This document shows, piece after piece, positions 24,731 to 60,610 of a stretch of DNA of 64,000 nt. The translations under genes were made by a program, and so were the position numbers. Within the stretch, counting starts at the first letter, position 1, and the number at the start of each line of letters is the position of its first letter. This DNA comes from Bacilli bacterium (GTDB lineage Bacteria; Bacillota_I; Bacilli_A; RF39; UBA660), in assembly GCA_017513865.1 (NCBI GenBank), contig JAFWMN010000006.1:107064-171063 (forward strand), written 5' to 3'. The notes under the pieces are model-generated. The model had not been told where the DNA came from. It saw only the letters and a list, made by a program, of their open reading frames with translations, and made no database searches.

Positions 24731-24814
24731 TTTTTAAAAAAATGTTTGCTACAATATATTCGCTTATGAATTTCTATGGCTTGATTTTTAAGTCATGGCG
24801 GAAGGAGAGATAAT

Positions 24815-27140: not shown

Positions 27141-27274
27141 CGTGTATGTGTGACGTGCTTAGATGTGTGAGGTTGTCGATACGCCAGGTTAAGTTGCAAA
27201 TCATTTTAACTTGTCTGTCGGGTTTTTACACGGAGCAAGTCTATACTTCGATATAGGCGAAAGGAGGATACAAT

Positions 27275-49782: not shown

Positions 49783-50238
49783 ATGAAAAAGATATTTATA
49801 TATTATAGTTTAAGTGGTAATGGTGATTTTGTTGCTTCCTACTTAAAAGAAAAAGGCTTTGATATTAGAAAAGTAATATCTAGTGATAAGATGCCCCAGA
49901 ATACTTTTTTAAGAATTATGACTGGTGGTTTTTTGGCAGGAATTGGTCATAAATCAAAACTAATTAATTTTGATAATGATATAAGGGATTATGATGAGAT
50001 AATAATTGGTTCACCTATTTGGAATGGTAGACTTTCTTGTCCTATTAATTCAGTATTAGATAATCTTGATTTAAACAACAAAAGATTAACTTTTATATTA
50101 TATAGTGGTTCTGGCGAGGCGCCCAAAGTAAATGAAAAATTGTCTCAGAAATTTCCCCAATCTAAAATTATTCATTTAAAAGAACCAAAAAGTAACATAG
50201 AAAACATGAAAACAATTTTTAATGAGGAGGACATATGA
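49783..50238 (+). CDS. Flavodoxin-like fold protein (Flavodoxin_4-type).
   Basis: 'KIFIYYSLSGNGDF' and 'IIIGSPIWNG' FMN-binding-like motifs are present. Confidence 0.55.
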   Translation: MKKIFIYYSLSGNGDFVASYLKEKGFDIRKVISSDKMPQNTFLRIMTGGFLAGIGHKSKLINFDNDIRDYDEIIIGSPIWNGRLSCPINSVLDNLDLNNKRLTFILYSGSGEAPKVNEKLSQKFPQSKIIHLKEPKSNIENMKTIFNEEDI

Positions 50239-51323
50239 ATAAAATTGATATTTTAAAATTTAATAATGAAAAAAAGAATATGGTGTATGGACCTTATTCA
50301 ATATTAGTGGCTTTATCAATGCTTGATGAAGGAGCTACGGAGGCTACTAAAGAAAGTTTAGATTTGTTTTTAGGAAATATTCCTATAAATAAATATAATA
50401 ATATTGAAAATGTTTTGTCAGTAGCTAATAAAATGTATATTAAAGATGATATAGCGAAAGATATAAACGAATCTTATAAAAATGTTTTAAGTGACAAGTA
50501 TAATGCTGAAATTGAAATTAATGATTTTAGCGATGAGTTTGTTATGAATAATTGGATTAACAATAAAACTTTCGGGCAGATAAAAAATATTGTTACTAAA
50601 GATGCTCTTTTAAATAATAATTTATTCTTAATTAATACTACGGCGATCGATATGGAATGGCAAGCAGAAATAAATGGTAGTTCTGTTAATGGCGGAATAT
50701 TTAACAATGGTTCAGAAGTAGAGGCAAGTTATATTTATGGTTTTACAAAGAATATGGCTTCTTATTATGAGAATGACGAGGTTTTATCTTTAGGTCTTAA
50801 TTTAAAAAAATATGATGATAATGATTATGAATTTGTGGCTATTCAACCTAAAGGTGTTGAACTTAGTGAGTATATAAATAATTTAAGTGACAATAAAGTA
50901 AATAATATTCTTGCAAATTTGAAATCTTTGTTAGACGAACCAAGAAATGTAGATATAAGTATTCCTAAATTTTCTTTTAATTATAGTTTGAATTGTTTAA
51001 GTACTTTTAAAAATATGGGTTTAGAAAATGTTTTTGAAAATGCCCATTTTGGCAAAATTGGAGATCTTCCAACACTTAATTTAGATGTTCTTCATAAAAC
51101 TAATATCGATTTTTCTGAGGTTGGTTTAAAAGCCGCAAGTGCAACAGTAGTATTATTATTTGAAGGTGCTTATTTCGATCCAAATGAAAGACTAATTATT
51201 GAAATAAACAAACCATTTATGTTTGTTATAAGAGAAAAGAATAAAAACGATATTTTGTTTATGGGTACTGTTTATAATCCTGTTTTATGGGCTGATGATT
51301 CAAAAAACTATGCTTATAAATAA
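50235..51323 (+). CDS. Serpin-family serine protease inhibitor (intracellular, no signal peptide).
   Basis: It has the 'YGPYSILVALSMLDEGATEATKESL' serpin N-terminal helix, a hinge/RCL 'EVGLKAASATVVLL', and the C-terminal 'KPFMFVIRE…ILFMGTVYNP'. A GAGGAGG RBS is present, and the start overlaps the flavodoxin stop (ATGA). Confidence 0.75.
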   Translation: MNKIDILKFNNEKKNMVYGPYSILVALSMLDEGATEATKESLDLFLGNIPINKYNNIENVLSVANKMYIKDDIAKDINESYKNVLSDKYNAEIEINDFSDEFVMNNWINNKTFGQIKNIVTKDALLNNNLFLINTTAIDMEWQAEINGSSVNGGIFNNGSEVEASYIYGFTKNMASYYENDEVLSLGLNLKKYDDNDYEFVAIQPKGVELSEYINNLSDNKVNNILANLKSLLDEPRNVDISIPKFSFNYSLNCLSTFKNMGLENVFENAHFGKIGDLPTLNLDVLHKTNIDFSEVGLKAASATVVLLFEGAYFDPNERLIIEINKPFMFVIREKNKNDILFMGTVYNPVLWADDSKNYAYK

Positions 51324-53807: not shown

Positions 53808-54707
53808 ATGAAAAAAATTGTTTTTGCAGTACTATTATCCCTTTTTGTTTTTACAAAGCCCGTTTTAGCTGAAGAAACAACAATAACGTATAATAAGTTG
53901 CAAGGAATTGCTTATAACCAGAAAATAGGCAACGAATTAAAATCGAATATAGTAACTTTTTTCCAAATGAAAAATCGAATTGCTTACTGTATTGAGCCAG
54001 GTGTGGAAATAAATGAAAGGTATTATGATATTGGCTATGATTGGAATGTGACTAATTTGTCTAGTGAATTGAAAGAAGAAATAGAAAAAATAGGATATTA
54101 TGGCTATGAATATCCCGGGCATAATAATAGTTATTATTATATTGCAGCTCAAGAGTTGATTTGGAAAGCTGTAAGACCAGATATCGAAGTGACATGGACT
54201 ACTGAAAAAAATTTAGGTGGGTCAATTATTGATATCAGTAAAGAGAAAAATGAAATAATGGATTTAGTTAATAATCATTCTTTAGTTCCAAGTTTTGCAG
54301 ATCAAATGTTTATTGATTATACGGGCAAAGAAATAATTTTAAAAGATGAAAATAATGTTCTAGATTATTATGAAGTTTCTGATAGTAACAATCATGCAAT
54401 TATTAGAGATGGTAATGTGTTAAAAATAAAGCTCAACGAAAAAAAAGTAGATGATGAAGAAATATTTTTGACCCGAAAATATTATGATAAGGAACCATTA
54501 TTAGTTTATAGTAGAGGAAATTCACAAAAATTAGCTGCTCTTAGAATTACAATGGATAGAAGATCTAGTTTCACTATTGGAAATAAAGAAGAACCAGAAG
54601 AAATTATAGAAGTTCCTGATACTGGGATTGATATTAATTTAGGGGAGTCAATATTTATGACTGTCTTAGGCTTAGGAATGATTATTAGTGTTTTTAAAAT
54701 TAATTAA
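53808..54707 (+). CDS. Sortase-anchored surface protein with a putative thioester (TQXA-like) domain and a VPDTG sorting signal.
   Basis: A signal peptide is present. 'AYCIEPG' fits the TED Cys motif [YFL]C-phi-[DNE], and 'IAAQELIWKA' fits the Gln motif phi-Q-x-phi-phi-W. The C-terminus is 'VPDTG' plus a hydrophobic segment and a 'KIN' tail. Confidence 0.55.
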   Translation: MKKIVFAVLLSLFVFTKPVLAEETTITYNKLQGIAYNQKIGNELKSNIVTFFQMKNRIAYCIEPGVEINERYYDIGYDWNVTNLSSELKEEIEKIGYYGYEYPGHNNSYYYIAAQELIWKAVRPDIEVTWTTEKNLGGSIIDISKEKNEIMDLVNNHSLVPSFADQMFIDYTGKEIILKDENNVLDYYEVSDSNNHAIIRDGNVLKIKLNEKKVDDEEIFLTRKYYDKEPLLVYSRGNSQKLAALRITMDRRSSFTIGNKEEPEEIIEVPDTGIDINLGESIFMTVLGLGMIISVFKIN

Positions 54708-55239
54708 ATTTTTATCATTTGTATTTTTGTTTTTTTCATTTAGTCTATGTAATTATAATGAAAACAGATTAAATAATAAAGTAGATGAATATATAAGTCA
54801 CAATTATTTAAACGAAAAAGTTTCAGCAGAGCCATCTAAACCGATTACTTTAAGATCTAATCAAAGTATTTATATTCCTAAAATTAATTTAGAGAAAAAT
54901 TTATATAGCATTAATTCTAAACTTAATACAGTTAATAAGAATATTCAAATATTAAAAAATTCTGATATGCCGGATAAAGAAAACGGTAATTTTGTATTAG
55001 CCGCACATAGTGGGAATAGTTCTGTTTCTTATTTTCATAATTTATATAAACTTGATATCGGTGATGAGGTAATAATAAAATATAATAATCATAAATATAT
55101 TTATGCTGTGGATAAAAAATATGAGGTAATTAAAACAGGTAAAGTATCAATTAAAAGGGATAAAAACAAAAATTCAATAACGTTAATAACTTGTAAGGAA
55201 AAAGACAAGCAATTAGTTGTTATTGGCTATTTAACTTAA
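54688..55239 (+). CDS. Sortase (small, class B/D-like) transpeptidase.
   Basis: It has an N-terminal TM anchor, a 'LAAHSG' His motif and the 'TLITC' catalytic Cys motif. A GTG start overlaps the substrate gene's 3' end. Confidence 0.8.
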   Translation: MFLKLIKFLSFVFLFFSFSLCNYNENRLNNKVDEYISHNYLNEKVSAEPSKPITLRSNQSIYIPKINLEKNLYSINSKLNTVNKNIQILKNSDMPDKENGNFVLAAHSGNSSVSYFHNLYKLDIGDEVIIKYNNHKYIYAVDKKYEVIKTGKVSIKRDKNKNSITLITCKEKDKQLVVIGYLT

Positions 55240-55295: not shown

Positions 55296-55958
55296 ATGAG
55301 GAAAACTCGTATAGTTATATTTGTGGTTTTTTTAATATTTTTATCGTTTTTTAATGTAGTTTGGGCTAGTGATAAAAAAATGAATTTGTTTTCAAAAGTA
55401 ATATATTTAGATCCTGGACATGGAGGGGCAGATAGTGGGGCTTATTATAAGAATTATAGAGAAGCTGACATTAATCTCCAAATAAGTAAAAAACTTATGG
55501 ATATTTTAAAAAAAGAAGGGGCTATAGTTTATTTGACAAGGTATGATGATTATGATTTATCTATTTCTAATGCTTGGAATAGAAAACGTAGTGATTTGTC
55601 TAGAAGAGCTAATATTATAAATAAATCTAAATGTGATTTATATTTATCTATTCATTTAAATGCTGAGGATAGTGGTTTATTTAGAGGAGCTGAAGTTTAT
55701 TATGATACGATAAATGCTGAAAATGAAAAAATTGCTTATATTTTTCAAGATGAATTCAGAAGACATTTGAATTCAAATAGGAGTTTTAAGGAAAACAGTA
55801 CTAAATATTTACAAAGAAGAGTTAATAGACCAGGTGTTTTATTAGAGGTTGGCTTTTTATCTAATGCTAGCGATAGGGCTTTATTAATAGATGCGACTTA
55901 TCAAAATAAAATAGCTAATGTTATAAAAACTGGTATTATTAGATATTTTGATAGTTAA
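55296..55958 (+). CDS. cwlD: N-acetylmuramoyl-L-alanine amidase, Amidase_3 family (CwlD-like, germination-specific).
   Basis: A signal/TM segment is followed by 'VIYLDPGHGGADSGA', 'SIHLNAED' and 'RGAEVYY'. It sits in the rpsI-…-cwlD synteny seen in Bacillus. Confidence 0.8.
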   Translation: MRKTRIVIFVVFLIFLSFFNVVWASDKKMNLFSKVIYLDPGHGGADSGAYYKNYREADINLQISKKLMDILKKEGAIVYLTRYDDYDLSISNAWNRKRSDLSRRANIINKSKCDLYLSIHLNAEDSGLFRGAEVYYDTINAENEKIAYIFQDEFRRHLNSNRSFKENSTKYLQRRVNRPGVLLEVGFLSNASDRALLIDATYQNKIANVIKTGIIRYFDS

Positions 55959-56022
55959 TGTGCATAGGAAAAAAATGTCTATAATACCTTTTTTTGTGTT
56001 ATAATGAATAATAGGTGATAAT

Positions 56023-56955
56023 ATGACAACGAAAACATTTCGAACTTTAGATGAACAAATTGGTATTTTAAGAAGCAAGGGACTTACTGTTAATGACGAA
56101 GAAAATGCTAGAAAAGTTTTATATAGAGAAAATTACTTTTTTATAAGTGGATATAGGCATTTATTTACGCTTAAAGGAGAAAAAGATAATTATATAAAGG
56201 GAACCACTTTTGATGAACTTTATGCGACTTTTGTTTTTGATAGAAGAATTAGAAATACCTTTTTTAAGAATATTTTAATTGTTGAAAATAATTTAAAATC
56301 AATTATGAGTTATCAATTGTCTAAGAAATATGGTATTAAAGAAAAAGACTATTTGGAACCAACAAATTTTTCTGATGATGCGATTAGATCAAGGCAAGTT
56401 TACGATGTTTTAAATAAAGTTAAAAGGCAAATTAGAGTTAATGGTAATAAGCATACAGCTACTTATCATTATATAAATAATTATGGATATATTCCTTTAT
56501 GGATTTTAGTTAAAGTTTTATCATTTGGAATTATGTCGGAGTTTTTTGATATTTTAAAACTAGAAGATAAAGAAGAAATTATAAAACCATATCAAATTGA
56601 TGTTGAAACAATGGTTGTATTTTTAGCTTTGCTTTCTAATTTTAGAAATGTTTGTGCGCATGAGGATATGCTTTATGATCATAGAACTCAAAGATCTATT
56701 CCTGATACAAAATATCATGAGGCATTAGGCATTGAAAAAAATGAGGATGGTTATATATACGGTAAAAATGATTTATTTAGTTTGGTAATTATTCTTAAAT
56801 ATATGCTTAGAGATGAAGAATTTTATGAAATGATAGATGAGATTAAAAGAGAAGTTGATCTTTTAGATGAAAATGTTGACATTGTTCCTTTAGACCATAT
56901 TTTAAACAAAATTGGTTTTCCTAGTAATTGGTATGATATAAAGGATCTTGATTAG
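56023..56955 (+). CDS. Abi_2 family (AbiD/AbiF-like) abortive-infection protein.
   Basis: It is ~310 aa, with 'RRIRNTFFKNILIVENNLKS' and the conserved 'LSNFRNVCAHEDMLYD' block typical of Abi_2. It has its own promoter (TGtgTTATAAT at ~55995). Confidence 0.65.
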   Translation: MTTKTFRTLDEQIGILRSKGLTVNDEENARKVLYRENYFFISGYRHLFTLKGEKDNYIKGTTFDELYATFVFDRRIRNTFFKNILIVENNLKSIMSYQLSKKYGIKEKDYLEPTNFSDDAIRSRQVYDVLNKVKRQIRVNGNKHTATYHYINNYGYIPLWILVKVLSFGIMSEFFDILKLEDKEEIIKPYQIDVETMVVFLALLSNFRNVCAHEDMLYDHRTQRSIPDTKYHEALGIEKNEDGYIYGKNDLFSLVIILKYMLRDEEFYEMIDEIKREVDLLDENVDIVPLDHILNKIGFPSNWYDIKDLD

Positions 56956-56965
56956 GAGGAGTAGT

Positions 56966-58042
56966 ATGAGAGAAAAAGGTAGAAATTTAATAATTTTAAT
57001 AATAGTATTTTGTTTAGGTGCTTGTGTGGCTTACTTTTTTATGGACAATAGTACACCTAGTTCTAATGGCCCAACAATAAATAAAAAAGTTACAATTACC
57101 TCTAATGATTCAATTAATGAATCTATTCAAAAAATTTATGATTCAGTAGTTGTGATTAGTAATTATCGAAATGGCAGATTAGCTGGTTATGGCTCAGGTT
57201 TTGTGTATAAGAAAGATAATAAAAATGGTTATATAATGACTAACAACCATGTTGTCGAAGGAGCTAGTGAGATTAAAGTTACTTTAAACTCTGGTGAAGA
57301 AGTAGAAGCCAAAGTTTTAGGAACCGATAGTTATATGGATATCGCTATTGTATCTATCGATGCTGACAAGGTAATGAATGTTGCAGAGATAGGTGATAGT
57401 TCTAAATCTAAGTTAGGTGATACTATTTTTACTGTAGGAACTCCAATAAGTACTGATTATTCAGGTACAGTTACTAAAGGAATTATTTCTGGTGAAAACA
57501 GAGAAATTACTGTTACTAATAAAGGAACATCCTATGTAATGGAGGCAATTCAAATTGATGCTTCTATTAATCCAGGGAATAGTGGTGGACCTCTCGCTAA
57601 CATTAATGGAGAAGTTATTGGTGTTAATTCTGTTAAACTTGTAGAAAACTCTATTGAAGGTATGGGCTTTGCTATTCCAATTGAAGTAGCTATGTCACAA
57701 GTTTCTAAACTCGAAAAGGGTGAAAAAATTGATAGACCTTTAATAGGAATCTCTTCTTATGATTTATCAATGGCAGTATATCTTGGTAGAACAGATATAA
57801 ATTCTAATATTAAAAATGGAGTTATTGTAAATTCTGTTGAAGAGGGTTCAGATGCAGCTGAAGCAGGAATTTTAAAAAATGATATAATTACTAAAGTTGA
57901 TGGTAAAGAAGTTAAAAGTTCCGCTCATTTAAAATATTTACTTTATAAGCATGAAATAGGAGATATTGTTAAATTAACTGTTTATAGAGAAAACAAAGAA
58001 AAAGAACTTACTTTAAAACTAACACATAAAATAGGAGACTAA
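56966..58042 (+). CDS. htrA: HtrA/DegP-family serine protease with a C-terminal PDZ domain.
   Basis: A TM anchor is present, with catalytic 'MTNNHVV' (His), a 'DIAIV' Asp and 'NPGNSGGPL' (Ser). The PDZ segment is 'GVIVNSVEEGSDAAEAGI'. A GGAGGAG RBS precedes ATG 56966. Confidence 0.88.
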   Translation: MREKGRNLIILIIVFCLGACVAYFFMDNSTPSSNGPTINKKVTITSNDSINESIQKIYDSVVVISNYRNGRLAGYGSGFVYKKDNKNGYIMTNNHVVEGASEIKVTLNSGEEVEAKVLGTDSYMDIAIVSIDADKVMNVAEIGDSSKSKLGDTIFTVGTPISTDYSGTVTKGIISGENREITVTNKGTSYVMEAIQIDASINPGNSGGPLANINGEVIGVNSVKLVENSIEGMGFAIPIEVAMSQVSKLEKGEKIDRPLIGISSYDLSMAVYLGRTDINSNIKNGVIVNSVEEGSDAAEAGILKNDIITKVDGKEVKSSAHLKYLLYKHEIGDIVKLTVYRENKEKELTLKLTHKIGD

Positions 58043-58054
58043 AATTAGTCTCCT

Positions 58055-58480
58055 TTATCTTATTTCCGGACAAGTTCCTATACTTGGAATGTAGAAACAA
58101 TGATTTTTATATCTTCCACTATTATATTGATCCCACCATGTTTTAGCGCAATTCTCATTATTTTTAGGGGCATAAAACCATAAAGCATTGGTTGCTGGAT
58201 AGTAGTATTCTCCTTTTAATACTCTTTCAGCCAGATTTTGTTCAGTAGTTGTTGGATTACTAAAAAAAAGAGGGTTATTAATTCCTGAAAAACCACCAGG
58301 GTTTTGATAAATAACATCAGTTATTGTTTTTGTATTAGTGAAAGTTAGGCAGTTTGCTAGGGCTCTATTGACAACGACATTGCCTACCATTAACATACCT
58401 AAATCACCTTCACCAAGAGCTTCGGCTCGCATTATTCTAGCTAGCAATTCTTTTTCTTTTGTTGATGCCTGTAAAATCAT
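58055..58480 (-). CDS. SleB/CwlJ-family spore cortex-lytic cell-wall hydrolase (Hydrolase_2).
   Basis: 'ELLARIMRAEALGEGDLGMLMVGNVVVNRA' is characteristic of the family, and the 141-aa length matches CwlJ. Confidence 0.75.
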   Translation of the reverse strand: MILQASTKEKELLARIMRAEALGEGDLGMLMVGNVVVNRALANCLTFTNTKTITDVIYQNPGGFSGINNPLFFSNPTTTEQNLAERVLKGEYYYPATNALWFYAPKNNENCAKTWWDQYNSGRYKNHCFYIPSIGTCPEIR

Positions 58481-58565: not shown

Positions 58566-58641
58566 AGGGGAATAGTTCAGCTGGTAGAACGTCGGTCTCC
58601 AAAACCGAATGTCGTGGGTTCAAATCCTGCTTCCCCTGCCA
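58566..58641 (+). tRNA. tRNA-Trp (anticodon CCA).
   Basis: The cloverleaf has acceptor AGGGGAA/TTCCCCT, an anticodon loop CTCCAAA, a T-loop TTCAAAT and an encoded 3' CCA. It is 76 nt long. Confidence 0.9.
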
Positions 58642-58651
58642 TTTAGAATAT

Positions 58652-58682
58652 TAAAACACTAACAAATAAGTTAGTGTTTTTC
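58652..58682. terminator. Bidirectional intrinsic terminator between the tRNA and the convergent minus-strand gene.
   Basis: AACACTAAC-aaataa-GTTAGTGTT plus TTTT. Confidence 0.6.
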
Positions 58683-59327
58683 TTTGGTCCATTTTTTCGC
58701 TTCTTCAAAGATAAAATCGGCTTTTTCTCTTAGGTAATTAGGATTAGAGTATAATTTGTATATTTCTTCATCAGAATAGTTGGATAGGATATAGTTAATA
58801 ATCGTATATGAAAATTTATATCCACCTTTATAATGTCTGAAATCTTTTTTAAGTTTATCAAAATCACATTTATCTAAGTTTTGAAGAGTGTAATCTTGGT
58901 TTGAAAGATTCGTAGCCAAGCCTTCAGCAAACCAAGTTATTTGATTATAATCCATGTGATATGTGTGATGGCATTGATGGACAATTTCATGTAGGACGGT
59001 TTTTTTAATTTTATCTACATTTGCATCTTTATGAGTAGTGTGTTTTATTTGATCTTCAACATTTAATATTCTAATAGTATTAGTCGGGGAATCAGAATCA
59101 GCGGATATATAATTTAAAATTTCTCCGTATTTAGAAATGATAAAATTTTTAAAAGGCTCATAACTAAGTAATATTATTCTTACTTTATTTGGCAATTTTT
59201 CTAAATTGAAGAAATTTAATATTCTTTTTTCATTACTAATAATGTAGTCAATGATATCATTAAAATAAGTATGTGGAAAATCACTTTCAATAATAAAGTT
59301 TTTTAATTCTTTTTTCACGAATATCAC
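58671..59327 (-). CDS. Putative zinc metalloprotease-like protein (HExxH).
   Basis: 'VLHEIVHQCHH' is an HExxH motif. No other domain was recognised. Confidence 0.4.
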   Translation of the reverse strand: MIFVKKELKNFIIESDFPHTYFNDIIDYIISNEKRILNFFNLEKLPNKVRIILLSYEPFKNFIISKYGEILNYISADSDSPTNTIRILNVEDQIKHTTHKDANVDKIKKTVLHEIVHQCHHTYHMDYNQITWFAEGLATNLSNQDYTLQNLDKCDFDKLKKDFRHYKGGYKFSYTIINYILSNYSDEEIYKLYSNPNYLREKADFIFEEAKKWTKEKH

Positions 59328-59422
59328 CTATATATATTATATCATAATTGTAATTTATACTATGTATAATTTGTTGTATGTATATTAAGATTGTGCTAAA
59401 ATTATATTGTAGGAGGTATAAG

Positions 59423-60610
59423 ATGCGTGATTTAGGTACAGTTGTAAGAGGTGTGCGCACACCAATAATTAAAGAAGGAGACGATTTAGCTAATATAGTT
59501 GTTGATTCAATCATGGAGGCTAGTAGAAATAATGATTTTGAATTTAATGATAGGGATGTAATCGCTATTACAGAAGCTGTGGTAGGAATTAGTGAAGGAA
59601 ATTATGTTACAGTTTCTGAAGTGTCAGAGGATATTAAAAGAAAATTTAAAAATCCAGAAGTATTAGGTATCGTTTTTCCAATTTTAAGTAGAAATAGATT
59701 TTCTTTAATTTTAAAAGCTATTGCTAGAAGCACTAAGAAATTATATGTACAGTTATCTTTTCCAAGTGATGAGGTTGGTAATGGAATTTTGGATGAAGAA
59801 AAATTATATAGAAGTGATTATACTTTAGGTAGCGTTATTACAGAAGAAGAATATAGAAAGCATTTTGGTGACTTTCTTCACCCTTTTACAGGAATTAATA
59901 TGATTGATTTTTATAAAGAATTAATTGAAAAAGAAGGCTGTGAAGCTGAATTTGTTTTATCAAATAATGTTTTAGATATTTTAAAATATACCAAAAATGT
60001 TATTAACTGCGATATTCACACAAGATATAGGACTAAAGAAATTTTAAAAGATGGCGGAGCTAATGTTATTGGTTTATTTGAAATAATGACTGAACCAATT
60101 AATGGTAGTGGTTTTAATAAAGAGTATGGGATGCTTGGTTCTAATAAATCAACTGAAGAAAGATTGAAATTATTTCCGAGAACTGGTCAAGAATTAGTTG
60201 AAAAAATTCAAAAGGAGCTAAAAGAAAAGACTGGTAAAATGATTGAAGTAATGGTATATGGGGATGGAGCATTTAAAGATCCCGTAGGGAAGATTTGGGA
60301 ACTTGCTGATCCAGTTGTTTCACCAGCTTATACTAAAGGTTTAGAAGGAACGCCTAATGAAATAAAATTAAAATATGTTTCGGATAATAAGTATGCTGAC
60401 TTAGAGGGCGATGAATTAAAAGAAGCTATAAAAGAAGAAATTAGACAAAAAGAAGATAATTTAAAAGGAAAAATGATAACTCAAGGGACTACCCCTAGAC
60501 GACTTACTGATTTAATAGGATCATTATGTGATTTAACTAGTGGTAGTGGTGATAAAGGAACACCAGTTGTATTTATTCAAGGCTATTTTGATAATCTAGC
60601 AAGTGAATAG
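59423..60610 (+). CDS. CofE-like (F420-0:gamma-glutamyl ligase family) protein.
   Basis: 'VRGVRTPIIKEGDDLANIV' resembles the CofE N-terminal ligand-binding motif (recall only). An AGGAGG RBS precedes ATG 59423. Confidence 0.4.
   Translation: MRDLGTVVRGVRTPIIKEGDDLANIVVDSIMEASRNNDFEFNDRDVIAITEAVVGISEGNYVTVSEVSEDIKRKFKNPEVLGIVFPILSRNRFSLILKAIARSTKKLYVQLSFPSDEVGNGILDEEKLYRSDYTLGSVITEEEYRKHFGDFLHPFTGINMIDFYKELIEKEGCEAEFVLSNNVLDILKYTKNVINCDIHTRYRTKEILKDGGANVIGLFEIMTEPINGSGFNKEYGMLGSNKSTEERLKLFPRTGQELVEKIQKELKEKTGKMIEVMVYGDGAFKDPVGKIWELADPVVSPAYTKGLEGTPNEIKLKYVSDNKYADLEGDELKEAIKEEIRQKEDNLKGKMITQGTTPRRLTDLIGSLCDLTSGSGDKGTPVVFIQGYFDNLASE

Follow-up and report, generated by a model that had tools for sequence, protein, structure and literature searches.

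An AbiD/AbiF-family HEPN gene fixed upstream of htrA in uncultured gut Bacilli is a candidate domesticated RNase

We analysed a window of 64,000 nucleotides from a Bacilli bacterium (GTDB lineage RF39; UBA660; assembly GCA_017513865.1, contig JAFWMN010000006.1, positions 107,064 to 171,063 of the forward strand), which carries at 56023-56955 a gene of the AbiD/AbiF (Pfam Abi_2) family, here called abi2, followed directly by the protease gene htrA. This arrangement is fixed and syntenic across a large group of gut Bacilli that are uncultured and have small genomes (RF39-type; CAG-822/Candidatus Coprosoma and their relatives). It appears likely, at a probability of roughly 55%, that abi2 encodes a domesticated cytoplasmic HEPN ribonuclease (RNase) with a host function, co-expressed with HtrA, rather than a mobile abortive-infection toxin; we infer domestication because the gene has no detectable cis-encoded RNA partner, has little room for one and does not turn over in the way of a defence gene. 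The features on which this reading turns are the following, with all positions given in window coordinates.

56023-56955, + strand: abi2 orthologue, with an ATG start and 310 amino acids, predicted cytoplasmic, AbiD/AbiF (Pfam Abi_2) HEPN family
56644-56661, + strand: codons for R208 (56644-46) to H213 (56659-61), reading RNVCAH, the HEPN R-x4-H catalytic motif
56966-58042, + strand: htrA, 358 amino acids, membrane-anchored trypsin-like protease with a PDZ domain (Pfam Trypsin_2, PDZ_2), the second gene of the predicted operon
55296-55958, + strand: Amidase_3 gene, CwlD-like, with an N-terminal signal/anchor hydrophobic segment (Pfam PF01520, E 5.9e-45), the conserved left neighbour

The reading frame of abi2 is intact, and several independent searches place its product in the AbiD/AbiF family. 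The protein matches Pfam PF07751 with an E-value of 2.9e-38 (132.5 bits, gathering cutoff 25.6), residues 32-219 covering profile positions 2-184 of 184, and the PADLOC AbiD model from end to end (E 9.2e-61); a search of NCBIfam returned no model for it. The block FRNVCAHEDMLYD is present in the protein, and its residues R208, N209 and H213 are invariant in an alignment of 14 orthologues as well as in one of 12 sequences that includes outgroups. In the Clostridioides difficile protein AbiFCd the aligned counterparts of R208 and H213 are R202 and H207, mutation of which abolishes toxicity, and whose equivalents in PbAbiF, R210 and H215, are required for activity (PMC12373285). When an AlphaFold2 model built on the 14 orthologues (pLDDT confidence 82.6, predicted template-modelling score 0.82) was compared with the PDB using Foldseek, the sole significant match was PbAbiF bound to its non-coding RNA (ncRNA; 8vz6_A, E 2.4e-9, probability 1.00, template-modelling (TM) scores 0.71/0.73), with Cas13d a weak runner-up (E 0.3), and a phmmer search of the PDB led to the same entry (8vz6, E 8e-16). 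Judged by the modelled structure, the protein belongs genuinely to the AbiD/F HEPN family, having the complete AbiF fold as well as the R-x4-H dyad, and its sequence suggests an active, probably dimeric, metal-independent HEPN endoribonuclease. In this respect the first-pass annotation, which had proposed an Abi_2 gene with an intact RN-x-x-AH block on the basis of the letters alone, is borne out by profile, fold and residue conservation alike.

To place abi2 among its relatives, we scanned genomes, one per GTDB species, with an HtrA profile, which yielded 39 loci. Here abi2 lies directly upstream of htrA in each of the 34 loci in which HtrA is at least 63% identical to that of the window, and the pair is also present in two more distant loci, L044 (HtrA 51%, Abi 65% identical) and L047 (HtrA 43%, Abi 52%). 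The gene thus directly precedes htrA in 36 of 36 species-level genome loci whose upstream DNA can be assessed, over a range of HtrA identities from 43 to 91%. In L047 the genes upstream of abi2 are unrelated (Tad-like secretion genes), and the abi2-htrA pair is nonetheless kept. Outside this set, L045 (HtrA 52% identical) has no abi2 upstream of htrA, a cytidylyltransferase-like gene (209-874) being found there instead, and none was seen in L046 (also 52%), where the upstream DNA is too short to judge; these two loci may lie at the limit of the operon-bearing clade. An amidase-htrA junction empty of abi2 was not seen in any locus examined.

Searches that started from the Abi protein gave a similar picture. 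Eight metagenomic contigs encode exactly this protein, with the same neighbouring genes, and a protein search returned hundreds of clusters of 307-311 amino acids that are 72-89% identical to it and come without exception from uncultured ‘Bacilli bacterium’ assemblies. Three homologues that were inspected (73%, 73% and 80% identical) share the gene order sortase, Amidase_3, Abi_2, HtrA, Hydrolase_2, with differing genes further out. A metagenome scan with an Abi profile added 80 further loci of 58-89% identity; of the 68 that extend far enough to judge, 53 have htrA directly downstream and two more have it about 220 nucleotides (nt) downstream, while the other 13 have ordinary downstream genes, such as thioredoxin with thioredoxin reductase, pheST behind a T-box, or an NMN transporter. 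The named records among the carriers include ‘Firmicutes bacterium CAG:822’ and Candidatus Coprosoma, which belong to GTDB family CAG-822 of the order RF39 (PMC8035907).

Purifying selection on Abi2 equals or exceeds that on HtrA. Between the window and its closest relative (L012), the only pair for which the ratio of nonsynonymous to synonymous rates (omega) is trustworthy, Abi2 has an omega of 0.062, HtrA one of 0.060 and the amidase one of 0.070. Median pairwise nonsynonymous divergence (dN) is 0.185 for Abi2, 0.194 for HtrA and 0.187 for the amidase, compared with 0.148 for a SleB-like hydrolase, 0.284 for a sortase and 0.328 for a thioester-domain (TED) surface protein encoded in the same cluster; and in the divergent metagenome loci Abi2 is still 59-66% identical, against 42-53% for HtrA and 45-58% for the amidase. 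The gene is vertically co-inherited with htrA and shows no compositional anomaly: pairwise distances of the two proteins correlate closely (Mantel r 0.92 over 37 taxa, with 0 of 2000 permutations as high), and the GC content of abi2 (25.6%), its GC content at third codon positions (14.8%) and its codon usage all match those of its neighbours. No paralogue of abi2 was found within the window.

The wider family behaves differently. By sequence similarity the abi2 clade is a discrete orthologous group, as a phmmer search over 1.84 billion cluster representatives found a single full-length representative of a 50% cluster at 62% identity, the next being at most 41% identical; homologues in phage and plasmid records do not exceed 32%. 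The nearest outgroup (P0128, 41% identical) behaves as a typical mobile Abi gene, in contrast to abi2. Identity falls quickly among its relatives, whose lengths vary from 308 to 351 amino acids and whose hosts range from Natranaerovirga to Anaeromusa, and the genes of this group sit in prophage-like contexts, next to an endolysin-like or Panacea-domain gene, behind upstream spacers of 200-540 nt. For abi2 itself we found none of the genomic behaviour of a defence gene, be it patchiness, a mobile or defence-island context, or rapid turnover. As a side observation on the mobile relatives, Abi_2 genes of this kind adjoin tRNA genes (L131, 1267-1340; L136, 5331-5486) that are probably integration sites, with one tRNA gene 150 nt upstream of Abi_2 in Enterococcus phage IME197 and two downstream in a prophage-like region of a Bacilli metagenome-assembled genome (MAG).

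Turning to expression, the sequence around abi2 points to a promoter of its own and to a transcript shared with htrA. The signals concerned are these.

55995-56005, + strand: extended -10 promoter, composed of TGTG (55995-98), T and TATAAT (56000-05), conserved in the alignment of relatives
56013-56018, + strand: Shine-Dalgarno sequence AGGTGA of abi2, of which GGTGA is kept in nearly all relatives
56953-56959, + strand: abi2 stop codon TAG (56953-55) overlapping the htrA Shine-Dalgarno sequence AGGAGG (56954-59), a junction suited to translational coupling
58033-58054, no strand assigned: bidirectional terminator hairpin behind htrA, with no other terminator-like site between it and the abi2 promoter

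In an alignment of the spacers of 37 related genome loci the sequence TGTGyTATAAT is essentially invariant and is followed by about 7 nt, then GGTGA, then the start codon. A TGnTAnAAT element ends 15-25 nt before the abi2 start in 68 of 77 metagenome loci. The extended -10 promoter that the first-pass annotation had pointed out is, on this pattern of conservation, real and ancient, and the predicted leader of abi2 would be short, at about 10-20 nt across the relatives and about 10-12 nt in the window. A generic promoter scan omits this element because it has no good -35 element. At the other end of the gene, nearly all of the 37 relatives have the same junction, gatTAGGAGG followed after 6-9 nt by ATG. 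In the window the htrA start is the ATG at 56966, 10 nt past the abi2 stop, as judged by inspection of the sequence and by the gene call in the identical contig L001. No terminator-like site was found between the amidase gene, abi2 and htrA. Because the stop codon and the Shine-Dalgarno sequence overlap and no terminator intervenes, the simplest reading is that abi2 and htrA, in this order, would share one bicistronic and translationally coupled transcript that terminates after htrA. We dropped a candidate internal htrA promoter in the 3’ end of abi2 (TTGACA-16-TATTTT, 56876-56903) as a conserved feature, as the codons there vary among relatives.

Further upstream, related loci carry direct CAC(A) repeats about 60 nt before the abi2 -10 element, with a preferred spacing of 11 nt (for example L075, L087, L101, L104, L105, L065 and L071). 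Of 100 distinct upstream regions, 25 have repeats at this spacing, compared with 2.1 +/- 1.4 in shuffled sequences, the loci being related and the counts therefore not independent. In the genome loci closest to Candidatus Coprosoma they are replaced by ATTTCAC..TTT..CATAAAA, and the subclade of the window has neither the CAC repeats nor the ATTTCAC motif and carries a second TATAAT at 55980-85. Repeats of this CAC type may be binding sites for a regulator.

The partner to be expected of an AbiF-type gene is an RNA rather than a neighbouring protein, because AbiF, and by extension the AbiD/F group, is described as a two-component type III toxin-antitoxin system, in which a HEPN RNase toxin is blocked by a structured ncRNA encoded directly upstream (PMC12373285, PMC13064643, PMC12737573); the remark in the first-pass annotation that Abi_2 proteins are mechanistically obscure is to that extent out of date. 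In C. difficile, transcription of RCd22 starts 168 nt upstream of abiFCd (PMC12373285). At abi2, the Rfam model of this RNA (RF03085, the abiF motif) found no match at E<=10 around the gene or across the 64-kb window, nor at its gathering score in 28 syntenic loci, and the same search recovered, as a positive control, both copies upstream of the abiF gene of phiC2 (37.6 and 19.5 bits). The argument for the absence of an RNA depends mainly on the geometry of the spacer and the lack of conserved structure in it, and not on RF03085. From the amidase stop to the abi2 start there are 47-75 nt in 34 genome loci, mostly exactly 62 nt, with L044 an exception at 125 nt, and this spacer is occupied by the promoter. 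RNAalifold found 0 conserved pairs in the alignment of amidase-abi2 spacers, and the spacer of the window folds no better than shuffled sequence (z -0.31). We likewise saw no suppression of synonymous variation in the coding sequences of the amidase gene, abi2 or htrA that could betray an overlapping RNA, the lowest windows reaching 0.56-0.60 against means of about 0.8. Taken together, abi2 appears to have no detectable RNA partner in cis, and little room for one.

Several points weigh against domestication. The link to HtrA is not obligatory, since htrA does not lie downstream of abi2 in about 20% of the metagenome loci. All carriers of abi2 are uncultured and represented by MAGs or metagenome contigs, and synonymous divergence is saturated (dS about 1) for most pairs. 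RF03085 also fails to match five other Abi_2 loci of mobile or prophage type, so that its reach extends to just a part of the family and a lack of matches is by itself weak evidence, and the RNA search spans the 64-kb window, with a trans-encoded RNA possible elsewhere in the genome. Finally, Abi_2 genes are near-core in some species, being present for example in 89% of S. aureus genomes, and conservation alone is compatible with an immune role (PMC12373285). The strongest alternative, which we regard as possible but unlikely, is that abi2 is a fixed chromosomal solo toxin of the AbiD/AbiF type, kept for phage defence and lying only incidentally within the htrA transcription unit. Such a toxin would be harmless through low activity or through the need for a phage-encoded trigger, as has reportedly been found for AbiD1, rather than through an RNA antitoxin. 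Its family membership and intact catalytic dyad fit this explanation, as does the fact that the experimentally characterised members are all antiphage or toxic (PMC13064643, PMC12373285), and the near-core status of Abi_2 within some species leaves it with substantial weight (PMC12373285). Set against this are the lack of patchiness, of any transfer signal and of defence neighbours; conservation that equals or exceeds that of a housekeeping protease over deep divergence, unlike the fast turnover of the outgroup; and the observation that lactococcal AbiD/F genes can be cloned only with their upstream RNA region (PMC13064643), a region that is absent here.

Two further explanations are less likely than a fixed solo defence gene. 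In one, abi2 would be the toxin of a type III addiction module, retained through addiction, whose RNA antitoxin acts in trans or has diverged beyond recognition. The AbiF paradigm (PMC12373285, PMC12737573), the limited reach of RF03085 within the family and the 64 kb of genome in view leave room for this, and we nevertheless hold it to be improbable: there is no candidate in the window at E<=10, no conserved structure in the spacer and no constraint on synonymous sites in the coding sequences; known antitoxin RNAs are encoded in cis directly upstream, whereas the leader of abi2 is predicted to be about 10-20 nt; and addiction predicts neither the order-wide synteny with htrA nor a substitution rate below that of HtrA. 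In the other, which we consider more improbable again, the protein would be an RNA-binding regulator with little or no cleavage activity, controlling for instance htrA or envelope mRNAs. This would suit the coupling of abi2 to htrA and explain how the cell, with no antitoxin, tolerates an AbiF-like protein expressed from a constitutive promoter, but R208, N209 and H213 are invariant in the clade and in the outgroups, the usual signature of retained catalysis. The first-pass annotation had favoured a stand-alone phage-defence gene inserted between cwlD and htrA, with neighbours that offer no partner. Family membership and a promoter of its own are what such a gene would show; the idea of a recent insertion is, however, refuted by the conserved position of abi2 across the family (all 36 assessable genome loci and 53 of 68 metagenome loci), which that annotation had itself named as a finding that would speak against it, by its vertical inheritance, its host-like composition and the absence of any empty amidase-htrA junction, and we give it next to no credence. 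Nor does abi2 stand alone, as it shares a predicted operon with htrA and has been co-inherited with it.

If abi2 is indeed a domesticated HEPN RNase, it would be produced from the conserved extended -10 promoter together with HtrA, an envelope quality-control protease, and its most likely role would be a part in a stress or RNA-turnover response. A more specific version of this scenario, which is speculative and in our view rather doubtful, is that at the base of the RF39-type lineage an AbiD/F toxin, having shed its RNA antitoxin, was co-opted as a stress RNase partnered with HtrA, as a counterpart of Ire1. Secretion or envelope stress would then fire the abi2-htrA promoter, so that the HEPN RNase could trim mRNAs, for example those of exported proteins, while the extracytoplasmic protease simultaneously clears misfolded products. 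The sole basis for connecting abi2 with secretion stress is the predicted operon that it shares with htrA. Were this scenario true, abi2 would be a bacterial counterpart of the Ire1-type HEPN stress RNases and a case of domestication in the lineage of the Cas13 ancestor.

The genes around abi2 and htrA form a conserved cluster without defence-system matches of their own. In addition to the amidase gene, it includes the following.

53808-54707, + strand: TED surface protein gene, identified by Pfam search, part of the cluster
54688-55239, + strand: sortase gene, overlapping the TED gene, identified by Pfam search, part of the cluster
58055-58480, - strand: SleB-like cell-wall hydrolase gene (Hydrolase_2), convergent (Pfam PF07486, E 6e-19), the conserved right boundary of the cluster

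The amidase gene is found upstream of abi2 in 34 of the 37 abi2-carrying genome loci, two of the remaining three having insufficient upstream DNA, and the SleB-like gene occupies the equivalent position in nearly all genome loci. When tested against the PADLOC system models, none of the nine neighbouring genes matched, save for matches of HtrA at the level of its protease domain, which agrees with the earlier view that abi2 is not part of a defence island. The names given earlier to its two neighbours held up unequally. The HtrA-type protease stands, with NCBIfam HtrA families scoring up to 292 bits against the htrA product, all under their equivalog cutoffs; CwlD is plausible but unproven for the left neighbour, which scores 195 bits against the CwlD equivalog TIGR02883, under the cutoff of 221.55. 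The TED and sortase genes accompany the amidase-abi2-htrA cluster in nearly all relatives and evolve about 1.8 times faster than Abi2.

Some further features of these loci are worth recording. Upstream of the cluster, the gene calls of the identical contig L001 place a serpin gene of 362 amino acids (PF00079) at about 50235-51323 (+); serpins are uncommon in bacteria. Just past the SleB-like gene lies a tRNA-Trp(CCA) gene at 58566-58641 (+), and a tRNA gene is present at the equivalent site in L012, L018, L021, L031 and L044. It is followed by an open reading frame of 218 amino acids at 58671-59327 (-), which has no Pfam match and contains an HExxH string (VLHEIVHQCHH), and which may encode a small metalloprotease-like protein, and by an F420-ligase/CofE-like gene (PF01996) at 59378-60610 (+), in what is apparently the genome of a small-genome gut Bacilli member. 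Elsewhere in the window, an L31-Firmicutes ribosomal leader above threshold and a sub-threshold S10-Clostridia leader (29.2 against 35.1 bits) were detected at 24774-24807 (+) and 27152-27260 (+). In a single metagenome locus (L087), a pemK RNA motif (RF02913, 49.2 bits) lies at 865-943, a few kb upstream of the abi2 orthologue.

These findings bear on how genes of this family are counted and interpreted. Abi_2 (AbiD/F) is among the most frequently called prokaryotic defence systems, and on account of this core gene every genome of an abundant gut lineage will be credited with AbiD by defence pipelines, which inflates defence counts. Within the searchable literature we came across no report of an abi2-htrA operon. 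For C. difficile, the published study notes a general enrichment of genes for ‘translation and posttranslational modification’ downstream of abi_2, and describes the role of chromosomal Abi_2 copies as unknown (PMC12373285).

Among known systems, abi2 is closest to the AbiF type III systems, namely PbAbiF/AbiFr (PDB 8VZ6) and AbiFCd/RCd22 of C. difficile, with which it shares membership of Pfam Abi_2, the fold of the whole chain (TM 0.71-0.73), the position of the R-x4-H motif and a size of about 290-320 amino acids, at a sequence identity of 21-28%. Unlike these systems, abi2 has no abiF RNA motif that we could find and little room for an upstream ncRNA, lies outside any prophage or mobile element, is lineage-fixed and syntenic, and is predicted to be co-transcribed with htrA; it thus fails two canonical AbiF features, the ncRNA in cis and the mobile, patchy genomic behaviour. 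With the lactococcal AbiD/F systems it has in common the PADLOC AbiD profile (E 9e-61) and the HEPN domain. Those systems are plasmid-borne and strain-variable and need a conserved upstream RNA region (PMC13064643), whereas abi2 is chromosomal, lineage-core and without such a region. The Cas13 effectors, which are thought to derive from AbiF-like ancestors (PMC12737573, PMC12165695), share HEPN RNase chemistry with abi2, and Cas13d is a weak fold match (E 0.3), but abi2 has a single HEPN domain and neither a CRISPR array nor a guide RNA. With Ire1 and RNase L, the stress RNases with HEPN KEN domains (surveyed in PMC3710099), the comparison is by analogy only, as HEPN RNases in a host stress pathway; abi2 has no specific relationship to them beyond the superfamily, and no sensor domain. 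Ire1 couples protein-folding stress to RNA cleavage, and the pairing of abi2 with htrA suggests that RNA cleavage may be linked to the quality control of envelope proteins. The locus is a natural case, clean and large, in which an AbiF-like HEPN protein has the behaviour of a housekeeping gene, and it offers a concrete test of how a toxin from the family of the Cas13 ancestor is tolerated without its RNA. This evolutionary status is unexpected for a gene of a toxin family and is well supported, and it leads to a mechanistic question that can be tested.

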